Below are positions 1 through 37,381 of a stretch of DNA of 64,000 nucleotides, piece after piece. The stretch is from Candidatus Helarchaeota archaeon (GTDB taxonomy: Archaea; Asgardarchaeota; Lokiarchaeia; Helarchaeales; RDOG01), in assembly GCA_019058315.1 (NCBI GenBank), contig JAHPZH010000003.1, positions 620,451 to 684,450 of the forward strand, in the 5' to 3' direction. The stretch's first letter is position 1; each line of letters starts with the position of its first letter. Under the pieces are notes generated by a model. The model did not search any database. It was not told where the DNA came from and saw nothing but the letters and a program-made list of their open reading frames with translations. The translations under genes and the position numbers were made by a program.

Positions 1-2133
1 GGACACAGACCCCTCTTGACTATTGGAGAAGAGGTATTGGATTATTATAGGTTTAATTATATAACAAAAGATGTAGGTTACAACTCATATGGAACACCTG
101 TATGCGTATTAGCTTATGATTCAAGGATCCACACAGATAAACCACTTCAAGAATTCAAGGAAATCGCAAAACAAATGTCCAATTTTGCATCCTATGTCTA
201 TTTTGATTATGCTAACGTAAAACAAGAGATTTCTACAAACACAGAATTTGAACCATTATTAGAACCTAGACTCTGGATTAGGGACAAAAGCTTGGGTATT
301 GATAAAAATTTCAAATTTTCTCCCTCAGCCATGGCAAATTTTCTTTCGGGAGTTCGAAGGAAATTGCGAAATAAAGATGCTCCAGACCCTTCTTTTGATG
401 AAAGTGTAAATGGTGAGGTTCATGAATTTGAACAAGTGGAAGAGGATGATCAATTATCTCCCGAGGATTTGGAACATATTAATATTGATGCAGATCTCCC
501 CGAAAGCGTAAAACAAGCTGCTAGAGTCTATGAGACTGAAGAACACACCGAACCTGTTGATGCTGTAATGCAGGAATTAGAAGAATTTGAAAAAGACGCT
601 AGATTAGATAATTCTTTAATAGACCAAGAAATAGTCGTCCGTCACGAGACCCCATTTTTACAAAAAGAACTTTTCAAAACTGCAAAAAATAAAGGAAATG
701 GAATTATTATAGACTCAAATAACTTTCTACATTCATTTTTACCAGAAATAAATATAATTAAGAAGGATTATGGATATATTCCCGATTATTATTTAATGCA
801 TGTCTTTGATTTCTTATATAGAAAATTGGATGAATGGGGTTTTGGCCCTATAATCTTCTATACCGACCCTGATTTCTACATATATTTATTACCAGAACCC
901 CAAAAAAGCAGAAAAATTGCTCATTTTAAAACAAAAGAAAAGTATCTATATTATCAAGCTTCAACAGAAGAGTCAAATTATTTCGAACATCAGCGCAAAT
1001 TGGGTCTTTTTAGGCAAGTTGAAAAAGGTGGGGATACAGACATGGAGATTTTGGTTGAAGGTTCCACTCATGATTATAAAATTTTAACTAACGACCAATT
1101 TAACCAGTCCAGATACGACCAATTTTGGGAATATGTCGCAAGTAACAGGCTTACATTCAAAATTGACAAATCTGCAATGACCATTTATGATTCAAAAAAT
1201 AATCAAATGGGAGAGCCATTATTTCTTATCAAACTTCCCGGAGATATTAAGGAAAAAGTATCTTCAATAGTTAAGACTAAGGCAGACATTCATCCACAGA
1301 TAAGAAGATTGACATCAGAAAATGCGAAAGAAATAACAAACGGTCTTGCAAAGGGGTATAGAGCTAATATTCTTGAAAAGCTCTCTATACACCCGATGAA
1401 CACATTGGAATTACAAAAATCCATTAATGGAAAAAATGAAGTAATCTCAATAGCAATTAAGGCATTAGCTGATGAAAATAAAATTGTCAGAATCGGATCA
1501 AAGTGGACAATAAACACATCAACCAGTTTACCACATCATGAGATAAGTAATTTTGAGACTTCAGTAATCGAAATCGTTTTTGGAGCATTTCATGCAAAAA
1601 TTGGACCGATTATTTTGTTTCCAACATGTAGCGAATGTTTAGACAAGTTCAATAAGGATAAGAACACAATTGATAGTATTTCCGAATTTGATTTACGACA
1701 CCATTTGAAATTGACTAATTGTAAATGCCCATTACCTAAAACAGGAATCCCTCGAGATGTAGTTAGAACACAACATTTAAACATCACGCTAAATTCTAAA
1801 GGGTTCCAAACTAGTGAGGGAGAGCATACCTTTCTATCATATAGATGGAGTAAAAAGGTAACCGACTCAGCAAGACAAGAATTAAGCTGGGCTATCTTGA
1901 TATATGTAAATCCAAAAAATCCAGTTTATAATATTGAAAGGGAGTTAATTAGAGATTTCTTATGGAGTTATGATTTTAACATAGATGAGGGCATAAGAAG
2001 TTTAGTCGAGCAAGGATTTAAGGGGGCAGAACTTGACGAGAAATTTTATGATCTAATGTACGAATATTTGATGAATTTCATTGATGATCTTACAAAAAGA
2101 ATTCATCACACATTAAATGAGTTAAAGGAGTGA
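1..2133 (+). CDS. 5'-truncated multidomain protein: acidic linker, winged-helix-like segment and C-terminal longin/uDENN-like domain
   Basis: Frame is open from base 1 (GGA CAC AGA CCC CTC TTG), so the TTG at 16 is probably not the start. wHTH-like RANILEKLSIHPMNTLELQKSI...IAIKALADENKIVRIG. IVFGAFHAKIGPIILFP resembles the first strands of longin/uDENN domains. Confidence 0.55.
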   Translation, partial: GHRPLLTIGEEVLDYYRFNYITKDVGYNSYGTPVCVLAYDSRIHTDKPLQEFKEIAKQMSNFASYVYFDYANVKQEISTNTEFEPLLEPRLWIRDKSLGIDKNFKFSPSAMANFLSGVRRKLRNKDAPDPSFDESVNGEVHEFEQVEEDDQLSPEDLEHINIDADLPESVKQAARVYETEEHTEPVDAVMQELEEFEKDARLDNSLIDQEIVVRHETPFLQKELFKTAKNKGNGIIIDSNNFLHSFLPEINIIKKDYGYIPDYYLMHVFDFLYRKLDEWGFGPIIFYTDPDFYIYLLPEPQKSRKIAHFKTKEKYLYYQASTEESNYFEHQRKLGLFRQVEKGGDTDMEILVEGSTHDYKILTNDQFNQSRYDQFWEYVASNRLTFKIDKSAMTIYDSKNNQMGEPLFLIKLPGDIKEKVSSIVKTKADIHPQIRRLTSENAKEITNGLAKGYRANILEKLSIHPMNTLELQKSINGKNEVISIAIKALADENKIVRIGSKWTINTSTSLPHHEISNFETSVIEIVFGAFHAKIGPIILFPTCSECLDKFNKDKNTIDSISEFDLRHHLKLTNCKCPLPKTGIPRDVVRTQHLNITLNSKGFQTSEGEHTFLSYRWSKKVTDSARQELSWAILIYVNPKNPVYNIERELIRDFLWSYDFNIDEGIRSLVEQGFKGAELDEKFYDLMYEYLMNFIDDLTKRIHHTLNELKE

Positions 2134-2139
2134 GTTAAT

Positions 2140-3204
2140 ATGAGCACAAATACGGACTATAAGTTGATTATATGTGGAATCTCAGGAGTTGGCAAGACCA
2201 GCATAGAACGCCATTTCTTTCATGGGAGAACCTATAATGAAATTGAAAATATGAATTTGGGACCTACTAAAGATGTTTTTTATTTTACTGAAAAACCCTT
2301 CAAACTCGGTTCTATGACAATACGTGCAGTTGATACAGGAGGCCAAAAATTGCTCCGTAAAAAACTTCATGGAGAAATGGAAGATTTATGCTGGATTGGG
2401 ACAGATGCATGTATTTACGTTATAGATATGGCTAGTGACATTATCAAATACGAAGAAATGTTACTTGAAAATGAAACATTGCCAGATAATTTTATTTGGA
2501 AACGGTTGGATGAGGCAAAAGAAGAACTAAAAAAAGTCCTTAATTCGTTAGTTAAATTCACTGTCCCTACTTCTAAGGTTAGGTTGATCATCCTACTTCA
2601 TAAATGGGATATATTGAAAGATTTTCCAAGAGATGTACAAGAAGAATGGCGACAGTGGTTACAAGACGAATTGGCGAAAATTGAAGATGAATGCCAATTT
2701 AACATACTTAATGGGAATAATGGTAGTAAAATTGAATTCTTAGGCTTTCACACCACTTCAATAATGGATAATAGTTGTAAGGCTGCTATTCGTAAAATTT
2801 TACCCCCACAAGAACAGTTGAAAAGGATACTAAGAGGATTTGTCGATAATTGTAAGGACCTTAAAGCAGACCAGGTCTACATAGCAGCTTTAAACGAGGA
2901 CGGTCTGGAAATTGAAAGCATACAATTTCCATCTATGATGGATACAGAACATTATTATGAAAATATCATAAGGTATTGTGTCCCTACTCTAAATCTACAG
3001 GAAAAATTTAAGTCAAATAGCATCATATCACTCTGTTTATTGAAAGAACCAGACCTACTATTGGCAGTTCAGCCCATATCAAAGGAAATTTCTGTTGTTG
3101 TTGTCACCGACATAACAGATTTAAATAAACTCAGAATTGTCATGGAGAGACTTAATGAAACACTTCGACATGTAAATAACATCATCAATATTTATTTTCA
3201 ATAG
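2140..3204 (+). CDS. Rag/Gtr-like small GTPase with C-terminal roadblock/longin-like domain
   Basis: G1 GISGVGKTS, G2 LGPTKDV, G3 DTGGQ, G4 LLHKWD, G5 TTSIMD (HKxD and TSI are typical of Rag-type GTPases). About 130-aa alpha/beta C-terminal domain. Confidence 0.8.
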   Translation: MSTNTDYKLIICGISGVGKTSIERHFFHGRTYNEIENMNLGPTKDVFYFTEKPFKLGSMTIRAVDTGGQKLLRKKLHGEMEDLCWIGTDACIYVIDMASDIIKYEEMLLENETLPDNFIWKRLDEAKEELKKVLNSLVKFTVPTSKVRLIILLHKWDILKDFPRDVQEEWRQWLQDELAKIEDECQFNILNGNNGSKIEFLGFHTTSIMDNSCKAAIRKILPPQEQLKRILRGFVDNCKDLKADQVYIAALNEDGLEIESIQFPSMMDTEHYYENIIRYCVPTLNLQEKFKSNSIISLCLLKEPDLLLAVQPISKEISVVVVTDITDLNKLRIVMERLNETLRHVNNIINIYFQ

Positions 3205-3236
3205 AGGATGAAGGTTATATTACTGGGGATAATTAA

Positions 3237-5210
3237 ATGACTAGTGTTTTTTCTAAATTACCTTTTGAAGTGGAAAAATTCTTCCCCTTTGAAAAACTAA
3301 GACCTGGACAATCAATGTTGGCTAAAGAAATTTATTATAGTGTCCTTTCTAGAAAAAATGTGGTCATTGAAGCATCAAATGGTCTGGGCAAGACAATTAC
3401 TTCATTAATAGCCCTCCTTCCGATAGTGGAAAAGGAAAATAAAACTTTAATCTACTGCACTAGAACACATAGCCAAATGGAAAGGGTGCTGGAAGAACTT
3501 AATCGCATTCGTCAAGTAAAAAAATGGAAAATTACGGGAGTAAGTTTACAAGGCAGAACCGAAATGTGCATTAATCCCCAAATTCAATTAGCAGCTTTAA
3601 ATACCGCTGATGCCATGAATCTTTGTTCCACACTTCGTAAAAATAAGAATTGTCCTTGGTTTGAAAATTTGAAAAATAGCTCTGTATTGATCAATAAATT
3701 ACGGGGGTTTCCAATTTCCGCAGCACAAATGATCAATATTGGGAGAAAATTTAATATATGCCCATATTTTCTAGCACGGACTTTAATAAAACAGGCTCAT
3801 ATAGTTGTAACAACCTATTTATATATAATACATCCTGCAATACGCCAAATTTTCCTAAACGATATTGAAGTTCCCCTTTCTGAATGTATACTATTATTCG
3901 ATGAAAGCCATAATTTGCATGATCTAGTAATGCAGATGGCATCGGATTATGTTTCAAAGATCTCCTTGGAAAGAGCTTTAAGCGAATTTCATAATTACAT
4001 GTTCAGTAACGATACTGTTGAAGAATTTTTAACAAGATTCCATCGTTTACTTGAAGATAAAGGTTCATTCTATAAAGGTAATTATGGAGAAGAAGAATTT
4101 CCCGTTGGTAAAAGGGAGATTAAGGAAATTCTTAATCAATATAGTGATAATCATTTGGAACTAGCTGAATTAATAATCCAATTCGGAAAATCAGTTCGCA
4201 ATAAAAGAATGAAAGCGGGACATCCCTCAAGATCTTCCCTCTACAAATTCGGTCAGTTTCTTATCACGTTAATACAGACTATTGATGATAAAAAGTTTCT
4301 ACATGAATATGCTTACTCAGGATCTAAAAAGAAGTTAAAAATAAAATATTATATAAAATGTTTGGATGCAAGACCATTATTAAATGAATTAGCAGAAGCA
4401 AGGGCAATAGTTTGTCTTTCAGGGACACTGGAACCTATTGATGCCTATTTAGATCTATGTGGTTTTTCTAGATTTACTACTACTTCAAAAGTTCTTCCTT
4501 CACCCTTTCCAGCAAATCATCTTTTAATAATAACTGTTCAAAGTGTTGATACAAAGTATTATAACAGGACTCCAAGCAATTATAAGATGTTCAAAGAACG
4601 CTGCATAGAGGTTGTGAAAAATACCCCTAATAACACGGGTATTTTTTGTGCTTCCTACGGAGTCTTAGAGGGAGTGTTAAATGCCGGTCTATATGATGAC
4701 GTTGAGACTCTAGGGAAAGAATTATTCATTGAACAAGCGGATTTAACGAGTAAGGATAATGAGTTAATGATCCAAAATTATAAAGAAATTGGACGAAATG
4801 GAGGCAGTGCAGTGTTAGCTGGTGTGTGTGGAGGTCGAAATTCCGAAGGTGTCGACTTTCCAGGACCAGAGATGAATTCGGTTGTTATAGTGGGACTTCC
4901 ACTCGCTAAACCTACATATACATTGGAAGCATTGCAGAAATATTATCAGGAACAATTTGGAGGGGATAAAGGAAGAGAATATGGTTATTACTTGCCAGCA
5001 TTAAGAAAGTCAAACCAAGCGGCTGGTAGACCCGTTAGGAGGTTGATAGATAAGGGTGCAATTGTTTTTTTGGATGAGCGATATGCATTTCCCTATTACA
5101 AACGTTATTTATCTTGTTGGATTCGAGATTCTATGATTACAATCTTGAACCAAAAAGGAATTCTAGAAGAAGAAATAAAGAATTTTTATCAGAATAGAAA
5201 TTACTTGTAA
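3237..5210 (+). CDS. xpd: XPD/Rad3-family Fe-S 5'-3' DNA helicase
   Basis: Q motif LRPGQ, Walker A ASNGLGKT, four Fe-S Cys (MCIN, NLCS, NCPW, ICPY), DESH box, SGTL, SEGVDF, QAAGRPVR. Confidence 0.92.
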   Translation: MTSVFSKLPFEVEKFFPFEKLRPGQSMLAKEIYYSVLSRKNVVIEASNGLGKTITSLIALLPIVEKENKTLIYCTRTHSQMERVLEELNRIRQVKKWKITGVSLQGRTEMCINPQIQLAALNTADAMNLCSTLRKNKNCPWFENLKNSSVLINKLRGFPISAAQMINIGRKFNICPYFLARTLIKQAHIVVTTYLYIIHPAIRQIFLNDIEVPLSECILLFDESHNLHDLVMQMASDYVSKISLERALSEFHNYMFSNDTVEEFLTRFHRLLEDKGSFYKGNYGEEEFPVGKREIKEILNQYSDNHLELAELIIQFGKSVRNKRMKAGHPSRSSLYKFGQFLITLIQTIDDKKFLHEYAYSGSKKKLKIKYYIKCLDARPLLNELAEARAIVCLSGTLEPIDAYLDLCGFSRFTTTSKVLPSPFPANHLLIITVQSVDTKYYNRTPSNYKMFKERCIEVVKNTPNNTGIFCASYGVLEGVLNAGLYDDVETLGKELFIEQADLTSKDNELMIQNYKEIGRNGGSAVLAGVCGGRNSEGVDFPGPEMNSVVIVGLPLAKPTYTLEALQKYYQEQFGGDKGREYGYYLPALRKSNQAAGRPVRRLIDKGAIVFLDERYAFPYYKRYLSCWIRDSMITILNQKGILEEEIKNFYQNRNYL

Positions 5211-8482: not shown

Positions 8483-10243
8483 ATGTCACAAATAAATAAT
8501 TCAAAATCCTCATTAAGCATACCAAATACGAAAACCATTCATTTTCTTAAAGCTGCCAATTCCTATGTTTTAAATGAAAATTTTAAAAAAGGCCAGACAA
8601 CCACACTTCCCACAAAGATAGCAAACTACTTCCTAGCAAATAAAATTGCGGAAGAAGTCATTGAAAAAAAAGTAAGAACTGACTATGAAAGAATCAAAGA
8701 TAAATTGGAAGATAAAGAAGAAGAAAATAACGAAAAACCAAGATATGTCCGACATCCTCTAATTATTGAAAACACAATTGAAGCAAGACTATACCAAGAG
8801 GTCAGTTTTGCTGAAACAGTCAAGAAAAATTCCCTTGTAATTTTACCTACAGGACTAGGCAAGACAATAATTGCCGTCTTAAGTTCAGTTTATTGGCTAT
8901 CTCAAGATAAAACCAATAAAGTAATCATGTTTGCACCCACTAGACCGTTATTGGACCAGCATTTTGAAAATTTTTCTAAGTGGCTTAATTTGATGGATAA
9001 TGAAATTGTCCAGATCACAGGAAAAACATACAAAAAAAAGCGAGCTAAAATGTTTGAGAATGCCAGAATGATATTTATGACCCCCCAAATTACCCTTGAC
9101 GATTTCGATTTAAAAGATGTGGCTTTAATGATTTTTGACGAGTGTCATCGAGCTGTAAGGAGATATAGATATGTCAGTAACGCTGAAAAATATTTTATCG
9201 AGGCAACCAATCCCCATATTCTCGGATTGACTGCAACACCTGGCACACCAAAGAAGATTCTAAGTGTCATGCGAAACCTAAAAATAAATAAAGTTAGTCT
9301 GGCCAATGAGGAAACAGACACTGTAAAACCATACACTCATCAAATATACGAGGATTATGTAAGAATTACACTCCCTCCAGAATTAATGAAACTTCGTAAC
9401 TTCATTAACAATTCGCTAAAACGGAAATTGTCTATTTTAAGCCATCATCCACTTGTCAAAAAATATGTGGAAGATAAATACAGAATCAATCCCCACGATC
9501 TTTCACGGATTGTAAAGATGCATATGGGAACCATGGTTTCAGTTAAACCTATTTTGATGCAGGTACTTAGTCTTACCTATTTATTGAATCTTGTCGAAGC
9601 TCAATCCATAAGAGCTTTGGAAAATAAGTTGATCGATCTGCAAGGGTCTAGAAATCCAATTTATCAAGAGATAAATTCCATATTGACTGACTTAAGAAGA
9701 AAAAATATAGAACATCCTAAACCTAAAATAGCATCAAATATTGTCCAAAATTACTGCAAAAACCATGAAGATTCAAGAGTTCTAGTCTTTGTTCAATATC
9801 TGGATAGTGTTGATATTGTCTTGGAGGAATTACAGGAAAAAGGACTAAAAGTAAATAAATTAGTCGGACAAAAGACCATGAGTCAGGATTTACAAAGAGA
9901 AATATTGGAAAAATTTAGAAATGGAGAGTTCCAAGTGCTAGTAGCAACCTCGGTAGCAGAAGAAGGATTGGATATAGCACAATGTGACCTAGTGGTTTTT
10001 TATGATTGTATACCCTCAGGTATTCGAACAGTTCAAAGGCGAGGTAGGACCGGGAGACGTCGTGCTGGGATGTTAATTTATCTTTATACAGAAGGTACTT
10101 GGGAGGAAAGTTTTATTTATATATCAAGAAAGCGGATTAAAGAGACAAATCATATTTTAAAGCTCATGGAACGACAGGACGATCCGCTAGATTTTTTAAG
10201 GGAGTATTTACATTCAAAAAATAAGAAAATGAATTCGTATTAA
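8483..10243 (+). CDS. hef: Hef/FANCM/Mph1-like SF2 helicase with no C-terminal ERCC4 nuclease domain
   Basis: EARLYQ, LPTGLGKT, APTRPL, DECHRA, LGLTATPG, HPK, TSVAEEGLDI, QRRGRTGR. Ends about 50 aa after motif VI. Confidence 0.88.
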   Translation: MSQINNSKSSLSIPNTKTIHFLKAANSYVLNENFKKGQTTTLPTKIANYFLANKIAEEVIEKKVRTDYERIKDKLEDKEEENNEKPRYVRHPLIIENTIEARLYQEVSFAETVKKNSLVILPTGLGKTIIAVLSSVYWLSQDKTNKVIMFAPTRPLLDQHFENFSKWLNLMDNEIVQITGKTYKKKRAKMFENARMIFMTPQITLDDFDLKDVALMIFDECHRAVRRYRYVSNAEKYFIEATNPHILGLTATPGTPKKILSVMRNLKINKVSLANEETDTVKPYTHQIYEDYVRITLPPELMKLRNFINNSLKRKLSILSHHPLVKKYVEDKYRINPHDLSRIVKMHMGTMVSVKPILMQVLSLTYLLNLVEAQSIRALENKLIDLQGSRNPIYQEINSILTDLRRKNIEHPKPKIASNIVQNYCKNHEDSRVLVFVQYLDSVDIVLEELQEKGLKVNKLVGQKTMSQDLQREILEKFRNGEFQVLVATSVAEEGLDIAQCDLVVFYDCIPSGIRTVQRRGRTGRRRAGMLIYLYTEGTWEESFIYISRKRIKETNHILKLMERQDDPLDFLREYLHSKNKKMNSY

Positions 10244-36220: not shown

Positions 36221-37381
36221 TTAAAAGAAATTATCCAGCCAAGGTTTCATTTCCAAAATTAGAGGTTCTTTTGATATAAATTCGGGATTATCTGGACTGA
36301 CATAAGTTAAAAAGAACTTTTCTTTATCTTTGGTGACAATCCTCTCAAGAGTGCAATATTTTTTATTTTTTAATGCAAGGATTAATTTTAGAGCTTGGTC
36401 AGGAAATATATTTAATTCTTCGCCAAGAATAGTATTAAAAGCAAAATTTTTTGCAAGCTCCTTTTCGTCATCTCCGTTTTCGGCTATGCAAATGCCGGTT
36501 TCGTTATAAATTGAAATATATTTTGCATTTACTTTAGACTCAAAATTCATTAGAATATTTTTTATTATAGTATTAACTGGAGAAAGTTCTCTAAGACTTT
36601 CACTAAAAGCAGAGAAGATGCTGTTAAAATTAAAAATACTGGTTACATGGGTAAAAAATCGAATCTCTCCAAAGATTTTTTGGATTTCTTTGCTAATTGC
36701 TGTTTTTTCTTTTTTAATATCTGGTGGTTTCATTTTGTCTGATTTATGTAATAGAACAACTGAAACGGGAGCTTCCTCTAAATATTTGAAAATTTCAACA
36801 ATATTTTTTAAATATTCCAATGCTGCATTTGTTCTTTTAGTATCGGATATATCAATAACAAAGACAAAGAGACTTGTGTAGCCAAAATGTTCTTTTGGTT
36901 CAGATAGATATTTTTTTCTATAGATATCTTGTCCTCCGAGATCCCATATACTTAAATTATAGCCGAATAGTTCAATATTTTCATATTCTACACCTTTTGT
37001 TGGCTTTAGTGATTTGGTTTCTTTTCCATCTTTTGCCTCTTGTGGATTAAGGAGAGTCTGAATGATTGAAGTCTTACCAGCAGCGTCAATACCAGCAATA
37101 ACTATTTTCTTTTCGGTAGTTTTCGCCCCTGTTGCAACTTCATTAATTATACGAGCGGCAGTAGTTAATTTCTCTATTTTTAAGGATTCTACAGACTTTA
37201 ATAGTTTATCAGGACTTTCAATTTTAATTAAATCAGCAATTTTGGCAATATTGTTTTGATTTAGCACTTTAGCGGTATCTTCATCACAGCCTTTCAAAGA
37301 AGTTATATCTAATTCAAGAACTTTTTGTAAATCAGCTGGAACTTTTTTAACATTTAATAGGGCAGCAATTTTAGAGGACAT
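36221..37381 (-). CDS. Arf/Rag-like GTPase with N-terminal HhH-like domain and C-terminal roadblock/longin-like domain
   Basis: DITSLKGCDEDTAKVL (HhH-like), GIDAAGKTS, KPTKG, WDLGGQ, LLHKSD, VTSIF. C-terminal ISIYNETGICIAE. Confidence 0.82.
   Translation of the reverse strand: MSSKIAALLNVKKVPADLQKVLELDITSLKGCDEDTAKVLNQNNIAKIADLIKIESPDKLLKSVESLKIEKLTTAARIINEVATGAKTTEKKIVIAGIDAAGKTSIIQTLLNPQEAKDGKETKSLKPTKGVEYENIELFGYNLSIWDLGGQDIYRKKYLSEPKEHFGYTSLFVFVIDISDTKRTNAALEYLKNIVEIFKYLEEAPVSVVLLHKSDKMKPPDIKKEKTAISKEIQKIFGEIRFFTHVTSIFNFNSIFSAFSESLRELSPVNTIIKNILMNFESKVNAKYISIYNETGICIAENGDDEKELAKNFAFNTILGEELNIFPDQALKLILALKNKKYCTLERIVTKDKEKFFLTYVSPDNPEFISKEPLILEMKPWLDNFF

Follow-up and report, generated by a model that had tools for sequence, protein, structure and literature searches.

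Known Rag-longin systems and the locus analyzed

Rag GTPases and the longin GTPase-activating proteins (GAPs) GATOR1 and folliculin form the core of eukaryotic lysosomal nutrient signaling. Here, we analyzed a 64,000-nt stretch of DNA (the window; C11:620451-684450) from a 5.8-Mb assembly of a Candidatus Helarchaeota archaeon (12 contigs, ~33% G+C), at the 5′ end of which a gene for a large longin-bearing protein (ORF1, open reading frame 1) precedes a gene for a Gtr1/RagA-family GTPase. Drawing on structural models, we lean toward reading the two products as a cognate regulator-GTPase pair in which the longin acts as a GAP at the membrane. The conserved, translationally coupled pairing of a GAP-type longin with a Gtr1/RagA-family GTPase is new, as are the architecture that joins a membrane hairpin to an NYN domain and the four-Cys insertion in the longin.

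The GAP longins FLCN, NPRL2, and SMCR8/C9orf72 share a signature that sets them apart from other longins and consists of a GP motif at the start of strand 2 and an Arg finger (PMC12290439). The best structural match to the ORF1 longin (Z 10.1 to 10.2) is folliculin-FNIP2 (Lst7-Lst4 in yeast; GAP for RagC/D and Gtr2; PDB 6NZD, 6ULG, and 8DHB), with which it has in common a Rag-family partner, a G(P) loop that links strands 1 and 2, and an Arg in the loop leading into strand 5. A putative zinc module (HxCx2H...Cx2C) that is split around the GP loop occurs in FLCN and Lst7 (PMC3438538, PMC4703059); the ORF1 longin likewise has a Cys-rich putative zinc module, split around an insertion by the GP loop, but its ligands lie elsewhere (CxxC after strand 2 plus CxC). 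Unlike FLCN, ORF1 has neither a DENN domain after the longin nor an FNIP-like second longin subunit, and its longin is the C-terminal module of a 1,334-aa membrane protein with an NYN ribonuclease (RNase) domain and no Folliculin Pfam match.

GATOR1/SEACIT, with the Arg finger of NPRL2/Npr2 (GAP for RagA/B and Gtr1; PDB 6CES, 7T3B, 8ADL, and 9H4Q), gives longin Z scores of 9.3 to 9.7. The likeness extends to the ESM-Atlas neighbors of the ORF1 longin, which carry Pfam NPR2, and to the GTPase, which scores best against Gtr1 and RagA. Unlike GATOR1, the locus has no NPRL2 C-terminal domains, NPRL3/DEPDC5 counterparts, or NPR2 Pfam match, and nothing ties it to amino-acid sensing or TOR. Asgards are reported to be without TOR (Liu et al. 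preprint, 10.1101/2020.10.19.343400). MglA-MglB of Myxococcus/Thermus is also a prokaryotic operon that encodes a small GTPase and a roadblock/longin-superfamily regulator at the membrane or cell pole. MglB is a roadblock dimer that is not known to supply an arginine finger; the ORF1 longin, by contrast, has a candidate Arg finger, and its GTPase is of the Rag type.

Within the Asgard archaea, the GP motif and Arg finger have been reported in some longins (PMC12290439). These FLCN/SMCR8-type longins, together with the NPRL2-like longins described elsewhere (10.1101/2020.10.19.343400), are domains of this kind from the same phylum that likewise have the GP loop and the Arg finger, and their partner (ArfR or Rag/Gtr) was left open (PMC12290439; 10.1101/2020.10.19.343400). 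The GTPase in the one conserved FLCN-like (DENN/LAMTOR1-like) Asgard operon is not of the Rag type (Liu et al. preprint, 10.1101/2020.10.19.343400), and the GTPases of MK-D1 are generally not in operons with longin/roadblock genes (Tran et al., PMC10933270). Unlike these longins, that of ORF1 shares a conserved operon with a GTPase of the Gtr1/RagA family. Both Rag-like GTPases and longin-GTPase fusions are already known from Asgards (PMC10933270). In the fusions, a longin with a GP loop and [S/A]RGG is physically joined to a small GTPase with a Rab-like G domain in one polypeptide, whereas ORF1 and its Rag-like GTPase are encoded by separate, translationally coupled genes.

The window's genome also holds further FLCN-like longins. 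Three clustered longin-GTPase fusion paralogs, two in tandem and one on the opposite strand (L041:867-1877 [+], 1941-2951 [+], and 2974-4005 [−]; G000:C1, about 31.9-35.0 kb), have an N-terminal longin with a GP loop and [S/A]RGG followed by a Rab-like GTPase, and one of them clears the Pfam Folliculin cut-off (24.1 against 23.3 bits). The genome encodes, in addition, a second membrane-bound protein with an FLCN-like longin. This protein (311 aa; L040:2967-3902 [−]; G000:C3, about 347966-348901) has an N-terminal longin with "DSARGG" and a C-terminus with several transmembrane (TM) segments, and scores 18.9 bits, below the cut-off, against Pfam Folliculin. It lies ~2 kb from two Rag-like GTPase genes (L040:5888-6808 [+] and 8920-9852 [−]; 306 and 310 aa).

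A conserved gene pair

Three co-oriented frames occupy the 5′ end of the window: 1-2133 (open at the 5′ edge), 2140-3204 (354 aa), and 3237-5210 (657 aa). The first of these, described as ORF1 in an earlier note written from the letters of the window, is cut by the window's edge; the gene starts 1,872 nt upstream and encodes 1,334 aa (P0004; full ORF, L002:12129-16133), such that window residue 1 is ORF1 residue 625. The spacing given in that note, 6 nt between ORF1 and the GTPase gene, is correct, with the TGA stop at 2131-2133 and the GTPase ATG 6 nt further downstream. The features of the pair are as follows.

1-2133, (+) strand: 3′ part of ORF1 (residues 625-1334 of 1334), from the upstream assembly read
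2127-2139, (+) strand: GGAG Shine-Dalgarno-like site (2127-2130), overlapping the ORF1 stop, and the 6-nt gap, from the sequence
2140-3204, (+) strand: Gtr1/RagA-family GTPase, 354 aa (P0002), from Pfam, PDB sequence matches, and motifs

A HMMER scan of 1.84 billion representative proteins with the C-terminal domain of ORF1 recovered a family of nine proteins, most of them 1,150 to 1,370 aa long. The longin-bearing gene is followed by a Gtr1_RagA-type GTPase gene in 8/8 loci from about five distinct lineages, and the gene-pair conservation that the earlier note had proposed as a check was thereby found. The spacing between the two genes varies from a 1-nt overlap (−1) to 17 nt, and the pair persists down to 25-30% identity between the GTPases and <25% between the ORF1 proteins. 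The other genome of the same family shows the same order (803-aa gene, small genes, 1,354-aa gene, GTPase, and XPD helicase), with GTPases that are 30% identical to each other and large proteins that can barely be aligned. Six further metagenomic contigs carry a family member, all with a Gtr1_RagA-type GTPase immediately downstream, and the operon order is repeated in L030, L025, and L031. One lineage has a 369-aa version of ORF1 made of a winged helix-turn-helix (wHTH) and the longin, which points to this module as the constant partner of the GTPase.

Two of these loci show irregularities. In one lineage, a 164-aa degenerate NYN-like gene (P0023; L031:9116-9610 [+]) lies between the ORF1 homolog and the GTPase gene and overlaps both by 4 nt. 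In another locus (L053:3-1753 [+]), the ORF1 homolog seems split or truncated: an 83-aa open fragment similar to the acidic linker stops at 254, and the next gene, from 317, encodes 478 aa with NYN, wHTH, and longin, which could reflect a frameshift, an assembly error, or a real split.

The C-terminal domain of ORF1 resembles GAP-type longins

The C-terminal domain and the elements within it were located as follows.

1564-2130, (+) strand: FLCN/NPRL2-type longin domain, residues 1146-1334, from the AlphaFold2 (AF2) model and structure searches
1603-1608, (+) strand: "GP" of the strand 1-strand 2 loop (G1159-P1160), from the alignment; the Gly (G20 of the domain) is invariant
1627-1728, (+) strand: insertion after strand 2, closed by CxxC (1627-1638) and CxC (1720-1728), from the family alignment
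1873-1875, (+) strand: Arg1249, candidate arginine finger on the loop before strand 5, invariant in 8/8 sequences

The AF2 model from an eight-sequence alignment reached a predicted local distance difference test (pLDDT) score of 88.1 and a predicted template modeling (pTM) score of 0.85, with the order strand, strand, insertion, helix, three strands, and then helices. A two-sequence alignment had given a poor model (pLDDT 48), which was left out of the structure searches. The top PDB rows found by Foldseek were entries of the SEA complex, KICSTOR-GATOR1, GATOR1-Rag, and FLCN (E 1e-3 to 3e-2; probability, 0.8-1.0), and realignment with VIA-align gave the following values for Z, root mean square deviation (rmsd), and aligned length.

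6ulg_L: Z 10.2, rmsd 3.9, 154 aligned
6nzd_H: Z 10.1, rmsd 3.7, 145 aligned
9v0j_A: Z 9.7, rmsd 3.3, 132 aligned
8adl_S: Z 9.5, rmsd 3.7, 136 aligned

An exhaustive VIA-align search of 48,161 PDB representatives, with a threshold of Z ≥ 8, returned seven chains.

6nzd_H: Z 10.1, rmsd 3.7, 145 aligned
8adl_S: Z 9.5, rmsd 3.7, 136 aligned
8fw5_B: Z 9.4, rmsd 3.2, 131 aligned
6ulg_N: Z 9.1
7o2w_A: Z 9.0
8yqg_B: Z 8.7
4zy8_C: Z 8.0

Their entries are those of folliculin, SEA/GATOR1, C9orf72-SMCR8, and Lst4, plus a Lokiarchaeal Roadblock-Longin protein (8yqg). The longins of SNAREs, coats, TRAPP, Mon1-Ccz1, and DENN1 scored Z 5.4 to 7.0 in this search, and other longins stayed at 7.3 or less across both VIA-align comparisons. 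From chain length and residue range, we infer that the matched chains are FLCN, NPRL2/Npr2, FNIP2/Lst4, and C9orf72-SMCR8. The shape neighbors of the domain in the ESM Atlas comprised clusters with Pfam NPR2 and Folliculin (TM score by query, 0.56-0.59), along with longin-GTPase fusions and hypothetical proteins from Asgards. The PDB matches were 10-14% identical to the domain in sequence, and an Atlas language-model search with the longin stayed at chance level by calibration (0.80-0.83), with an NPR2 cluster (19% of members) at rank 6.

These models and searches support the C-terminal domain as a longin that is nearest to the GAP type (FLCN/NPRL2/SMCR8) rather than to generic longins, and they supersede the single short motif on which the longin call had originally rested. 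The resemblance to folliculin is at least as good as that to NPRL2. ORF1 ends with the last helix of the longin, with no DENN or NPRL2-C domain after it, which leaves the "DENN-type" part of the original description unsupported, and the operon holds no second longin gene of the FNIP, NPRL3, or C9orf72 type.

Invariant residues and the Cys insertion

Nine of the 195 longin positions are invariant across the eight sequences, which are 17-48% identical, and these nine include G1159 and R1249. The stretch in which the earlier note had recognized the longin motif, IEIVFGAFHAKIGPIILFP, lies exactly at nt 1567-1623, followed by CSEC at 1627-1638 and CKC at 1720-1728. Of the CSEC..HH..CKC insertion described there, the CxxC...CxC pattern of four Cys is conserved, while the two His are not. 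Both Cys pairs are kept in seven family members; the insertion is absent from P0007 and P0017, and its middle is modeled with low confidence. From the sequence, CxxC/CxC may form a putative zinc site of four Cys. A reading in which the two His also serve as ligands was rejected, since they are not conserved in the family.

The downstream gene encodes a Rag-type GTPase

By its sequence, 2140-3204 encodes a Gtr1/RagA-family GTPase, as had been proposed. It scores 54.3 bits against Pfam Gtr1_RagA (PF04670; cut-off, 22; E 1.6e-14), well outside chance expectation, and the G-alpha, Arf, Roc, and Ras models score far lower. Its closest solved relatives by sequence are yeast Gtr1 and human RagA, followed by RagC and Gtr2. 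All of the motifs listed in the earlier note (GISGVGKTS, LGPTKDV, DTGGQ, LLHKWD, and TTSIMD) are present in the translation.

2176-2199, (+) strand: GISGVGKT (G1; in GISGVGKTS)
2266-2268, (+) strand: switch I Thr43 (in LGPTKDV)
2332-2346, (+) strand: DTGGQ (G3)
2599-2610, (+) strand: HKWD (G4; in LLHKWD)
2752-2769, (+) strand: TTSIMD (G5)
~2803-3201, (+) strand: C-terminal domain of ~130 residues after the G domain, from the translation

Among six aligned orthologs, the P-loop, switch-I Thr43, DxGGQ with Gln69, and HKWD are invariant, as is the Ser-Ile-x-Asp core of G5 (TSIMD in the window's protein). Pfam Gtr1_RagA also matches ortholog P0008 (45.6 bits) and five further orthologs.

A roadblock fold is plausible for the C-terminal domain of the GTPase. 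Its language-model neighbors are eukaryotic Gtr1_RagA clusters (0.86-0.87; a lead only), and comparison with roadblock proteins of the same genome by hhalign gave P 0.013, with the expected helix-strand-strand start, which is suggestive only; two control profiles in the same comparison gave P 0.35 and 0.7. Pfam Robl_LC7 did not match the locus, and a PDB profile search with the C-terminal alignment returned no matches. Rag GTPases are obligate dimers (RagA/B with RagC/D). No second Rag gene lies within the operon, and four weaker Rag-like matches are found elsewhere in the genome. A weak Rag-like match (E 1.8e-4 to P0002), in a 389-aa open frame, lies at 36845-37120 on the (−) strand of the window. 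The structure of an Asgard "monomeric Rag-like small GTPase", LokiRagM from Lokiarchaeota, has been solved (PDB 9m28); at E < 1, the GTPase encoded here has no sequence match to it.

A predicted complex places the longin on the nucleotide pocket

We modeled the full GTPase (6-row alignment) with GTP and Mg together with the longin domain (8-row alignment). The interface score (ipSAE) was 0.66, compared with 0.00 for the best of three controls; in calibration, 58 of 80 solved complexes attained that mark, as did 2 of 110 mismatched pairs. At least 95% of contacts agreed between runs, with a pLDDT of at least 83 for the partner. Although free to pick the C-terminal domain of the GTPase, the longin was placed on the nucleotide pocket. 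On the GTPase side, the predicted interface takes in the P-loop (residues 15-16), switch I (39-45), and Gln69 with switch II (69-79), and on the longin side, domain residues 15-21 (the FHAKIGP loop) and 110-114 (R1249 and its neighbors). In the model, R1249 contacts the P-loop at GTPase residue 16 and switch I at residue 42. Within the longin, conservation is higher at the predicted interface than elsewhere (permutation p 0.012, a value that is not independent of the alignment used). The Arg finger that the earlier note had suggested looking for may be the invariant Arg1249, which the controlled model sets at the nucleotide pocket. The analysis establishes the family assignments, the model of the longin fold, and the conservation of both the residues and the gene pair. 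Binding of the longin to the GTPase at this pocket, and the geometry of that binding, are supported by the model only.

Weighing the GAP reading against its alternatives

Under the reading that we favor, the helical hairpin would anchor ORF1 in the membrane, and the whole C-terminal part of the protein (a thioredoxin-like region, the NYN RNase, the wHTH, and the longin) would lie in the cytoplasm. The FLCN/NPRL2/SMCR8-type longin would then dock on the nucleotide pocket of the co-translated Rag/Gtr-like GTPase, with the G(P) loop that joins its strands 1 and 2 facing switch II and the catalytic Gln69, while invariant Arg1249 would insert beside the P-loop and switch I as an arginine finger. 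From these two placements, GAP action of the longin would follow, and the longin would switch the GTPase off at the membrane. GAP catalysis is thus predicted from the modeled geometry, and the GTPase cycle may in turn be coupled to the NYN RNase or to the surface-protein operon.

Several points weigh against this reading. In eukaryotes, a GAP longin works in a heterodimer with another longin subunit, and this locus has no evident counterpart of the latter. Only 3/9 family members keep the Pro of the GP motif, the other 6/9 having G, A, S, or Y. The Z scores of 8-10 are only moderately above the background of 7-8 quoted for VIA-align, and sequence profiles do not make the connection: the longin matches neither Pfam NPR2 (PF06218) nor Folliculin (PF11704), with none at E ≤ 5; genome-wide NPR2 and Folliculin hidden Markov model scans miss this locus; the longin alignment had no matches in a PDB profile search; and hhalign of the longin family against the Folliculin-positive Asgard longins of the same genome was not significant (P 0.11). 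As for the complex, similar ones have been solved (FLCN-RagC and GATOR1-RagA), so the high score may reflect likeness, and the use of our own alignments with GTP and Mg riding along departs from the calibration of the prediction. Longin and roadblock domains in general are, moreover, more often guanine nucleotide exchange factors (GEFs) or scaffolds (PMC10933270, PMC12290439).

This last point feeds the alternative that we take most seriously, although we regard it as rather unlikely: that the longin binds the GTPase in another capacity, as a GEF (like TRAPP, Mon1-Ccz1, DENN, or Ragulator), as a membrane anchor, or as a docking site through which the GTP-bound GTPase controls the NYN RNase as its effector. 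The majority of longin/roadblock regulators that have been characterized work as GEFs or scaffolds (PMC10933270, PMC12290439), the RNase domain of ORF1, a predicted membrane protein, looks like an output module, the GP motif varies at its Pro, and binding at the switch regions would suit a GEF or an effector equally. However, the Arg that the model puts at the P-loop does not vary within the family, the pose is kept with GTP and Mg bound, and the nearest structures are of the GAP type, with the GEF-type Mon1-Ccz1, TRAPP, and DENN1 at Z 5.4 to 7.0. It is less probable still that ORF1 and the GTPase never touch and are merely co-expressed from an operon for a membrane or surface structure, the longin having some other partner. 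The entire six-gene order is conserved rather than the pair alone, a first look at the genome gives 35 candidates for other small GTPases, with five matches at E ≤ 0.001, as well as 23 matches to roadblock domains, and the interfaces are computed, not measured; yet the two genes adjoin (overlap or 6-17-nt gaps) in 8/8 loci while other ORF1 domains vary, and the complex scores well above every control. We give very little weight to the idea that the likeness to FLCN/NPRL2 is convergent or a modeling artifact, the domain being an alpha/beta sandwich of a generic longin/roadblock-like type whose Arg is there by chance. The 10-14% identity to the PDB matches, the missing profile link, and the poor two-sequence model would fit it, but the eight-sequence model is confident, two libraries and two aligners converge on the same subfamily, and both the Arg and the Gly are invariant at 17-48% identity.

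Other modules of ORF1

ORF1 matched no family in Pfam or NCBIfam, and an Atlas language-model search with its N-terminus found nothing (top, 0.79). A predicted membrane hairpin of two hydrophobic helices lies at ~residues 215-265 of ORF1, outside the window, and at ~195-265 across 6/6 full-length family members; both of its flanks would lie on the same side, presumably the cytoplasm. The modules between the hairpin and the longin that fall within the window are as follows.

691-1233, (+) strand: NYN/Zc3h12a-like RNase domain, ~residues 855-1035, from an ortholog's PF11977 match and collinear alignment
703-723, (+) strand: NYN acidic motif IIIDSNN, from the translation
1030-1047, (+) strand: NYN acidic motif GDTDME, from the translation
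1084-1101, (+) strand: NYN acidic motif LTNDQF, from the translation
1306-1518, (+) strand: probable wHTH, ~residues 1060-1130, from sub-threshold HTH-type matches

The middle domain is called NYN because ortholog P0017 passes PF11977 (38.6 bits; cut-off, 23), two more orthologs (P0014 and P0013) reach E of about 0.02, and the regions are collinear; the window's own ORF1 falls below the PF11977 threshold, and its assignment rests on these orthologs. The NYN profile gave a marginal KHNYN match in the PDB (E 0.028). ORF1 orthologs retain the D/N, DxD, and D motifs, which paralogs P0009 and P0023 have lost. The wHTH noted earlier is probable, with sub-threshold matches alone to HTH_Cmi2_C (E 0.02-0.12 in 3/7 segments, one of which is paralog P0009) and Sulfolobus_pRN (E 0.009), and it is missing or degraded in P0012 and P0014. 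P0011 lacks the NYN domain, and P0015 (369 aa) consists of wHTH and longin alone. As judged from the alignment, the C-terminal longin domain is the constant part of the ORF1 family, with the other modules dispensable in turn. The 389-aa paralog P0009 (L026:5268-6437 [−]; G000:C1:23270-24058 region) has NYN-like and wHTH segments, no hairpin or longin, and has partly lost the acidic NYN residues.

Operon context and distribution

In the window's genome, six genes are tightly packed, with successive gaps of 20, 9, 18, 6, and 32 nt, in the order 827-aa protein, 87-aa 2-TM protein, 79-aa 2-TM protein, ORF1, GTPase, and XPD. The two 2-TM proteins that precede ORF1 are paralogs of each other. The first three genes together occupy L002:9094-12110 (+), just upstream of the window. 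The 827-aa protein is a putative surface protein, with a hydrophobic helix at each terminus and many N-x-S/T sites (N-glycosylation sequons).

3237-5210, (+) strand: XPD/Rad3 helicase, conserved downstream neighbor, from TIGR00604 (333 bits) and synteny

The XPD/Rad3 gene lies 3′ of the GTPase gene wherever contigs extend that far and is probably in the same transcription unit as the pair; a functional tie is not evident. RadA occurs nearby in two loci. Nothing in the operon context suggests nutrient sensing; what it suggests is the membrane or cell surface, along with RNA.

The ORF1 longin forms a new family at the sequence level. A longin-profile search of 400 Asgard genomes found it in 2, both from the window's own Asgard family, after three marginal matches (stop codons or E > 0.001) were discounted, and the specific GTPase clade occurs in 2/41 genomes. 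A word-indexed homolog search with ORF1 residues 850-1334 returned the query alone, and one with the longin alignment returned nothing at similar lengths and known members alone at longer lengths. The same residues in a six-frame search of 40 relatives found only the same-genome paralog; the ORF1 ortholog in G001 is too diverged for that search and was located by synteny. A contig profile search with the GTPase alignment returned a single locus (G001).

Significance for a proposed Asgard Rag-type switch

The observation in the earlier note is confirmed, and the core of its interpretation, a Rag-like GTPase with an NPRL2/FLCN-like longin regulator in a conserved coupled pair, is supported. Two wider claims of the earlier note do not find support here. 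A "nutrient switch" is not what the surroundings suggest, with a surface protein and small membrane proteins encoded in the operon alongside an RNase domain, and an "antecedent" in the phylogenetic sense is unsupported for a regulator confined to one Asgard family with no profile link to NPR2 or Folliculin. What we put forward instead, as a tentative proposal that may well not hold, is that Asgard Arg-finger (FLCN/NPRL2-type) longins are cognate GAPs of Rag/Gtr GTPases, for which this operon would be the first genomic evidence. The switch would then be pre-eukaryotic, and its archaeal form would be membrane-bound and wired to an NYN ribonuclease and a cell-surface cluster rather than to TOR. 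The locus names a concrete coupled pair, directly expressible and assayable, with a predicted finger residue, and the pair offers a defined prokaryotic system for asking whether the Rag-GAP switch predates eukaryotes. It also suggests an ancestral wiring, with a membrane anchor and an RNase, unlike the eukaryotic one.

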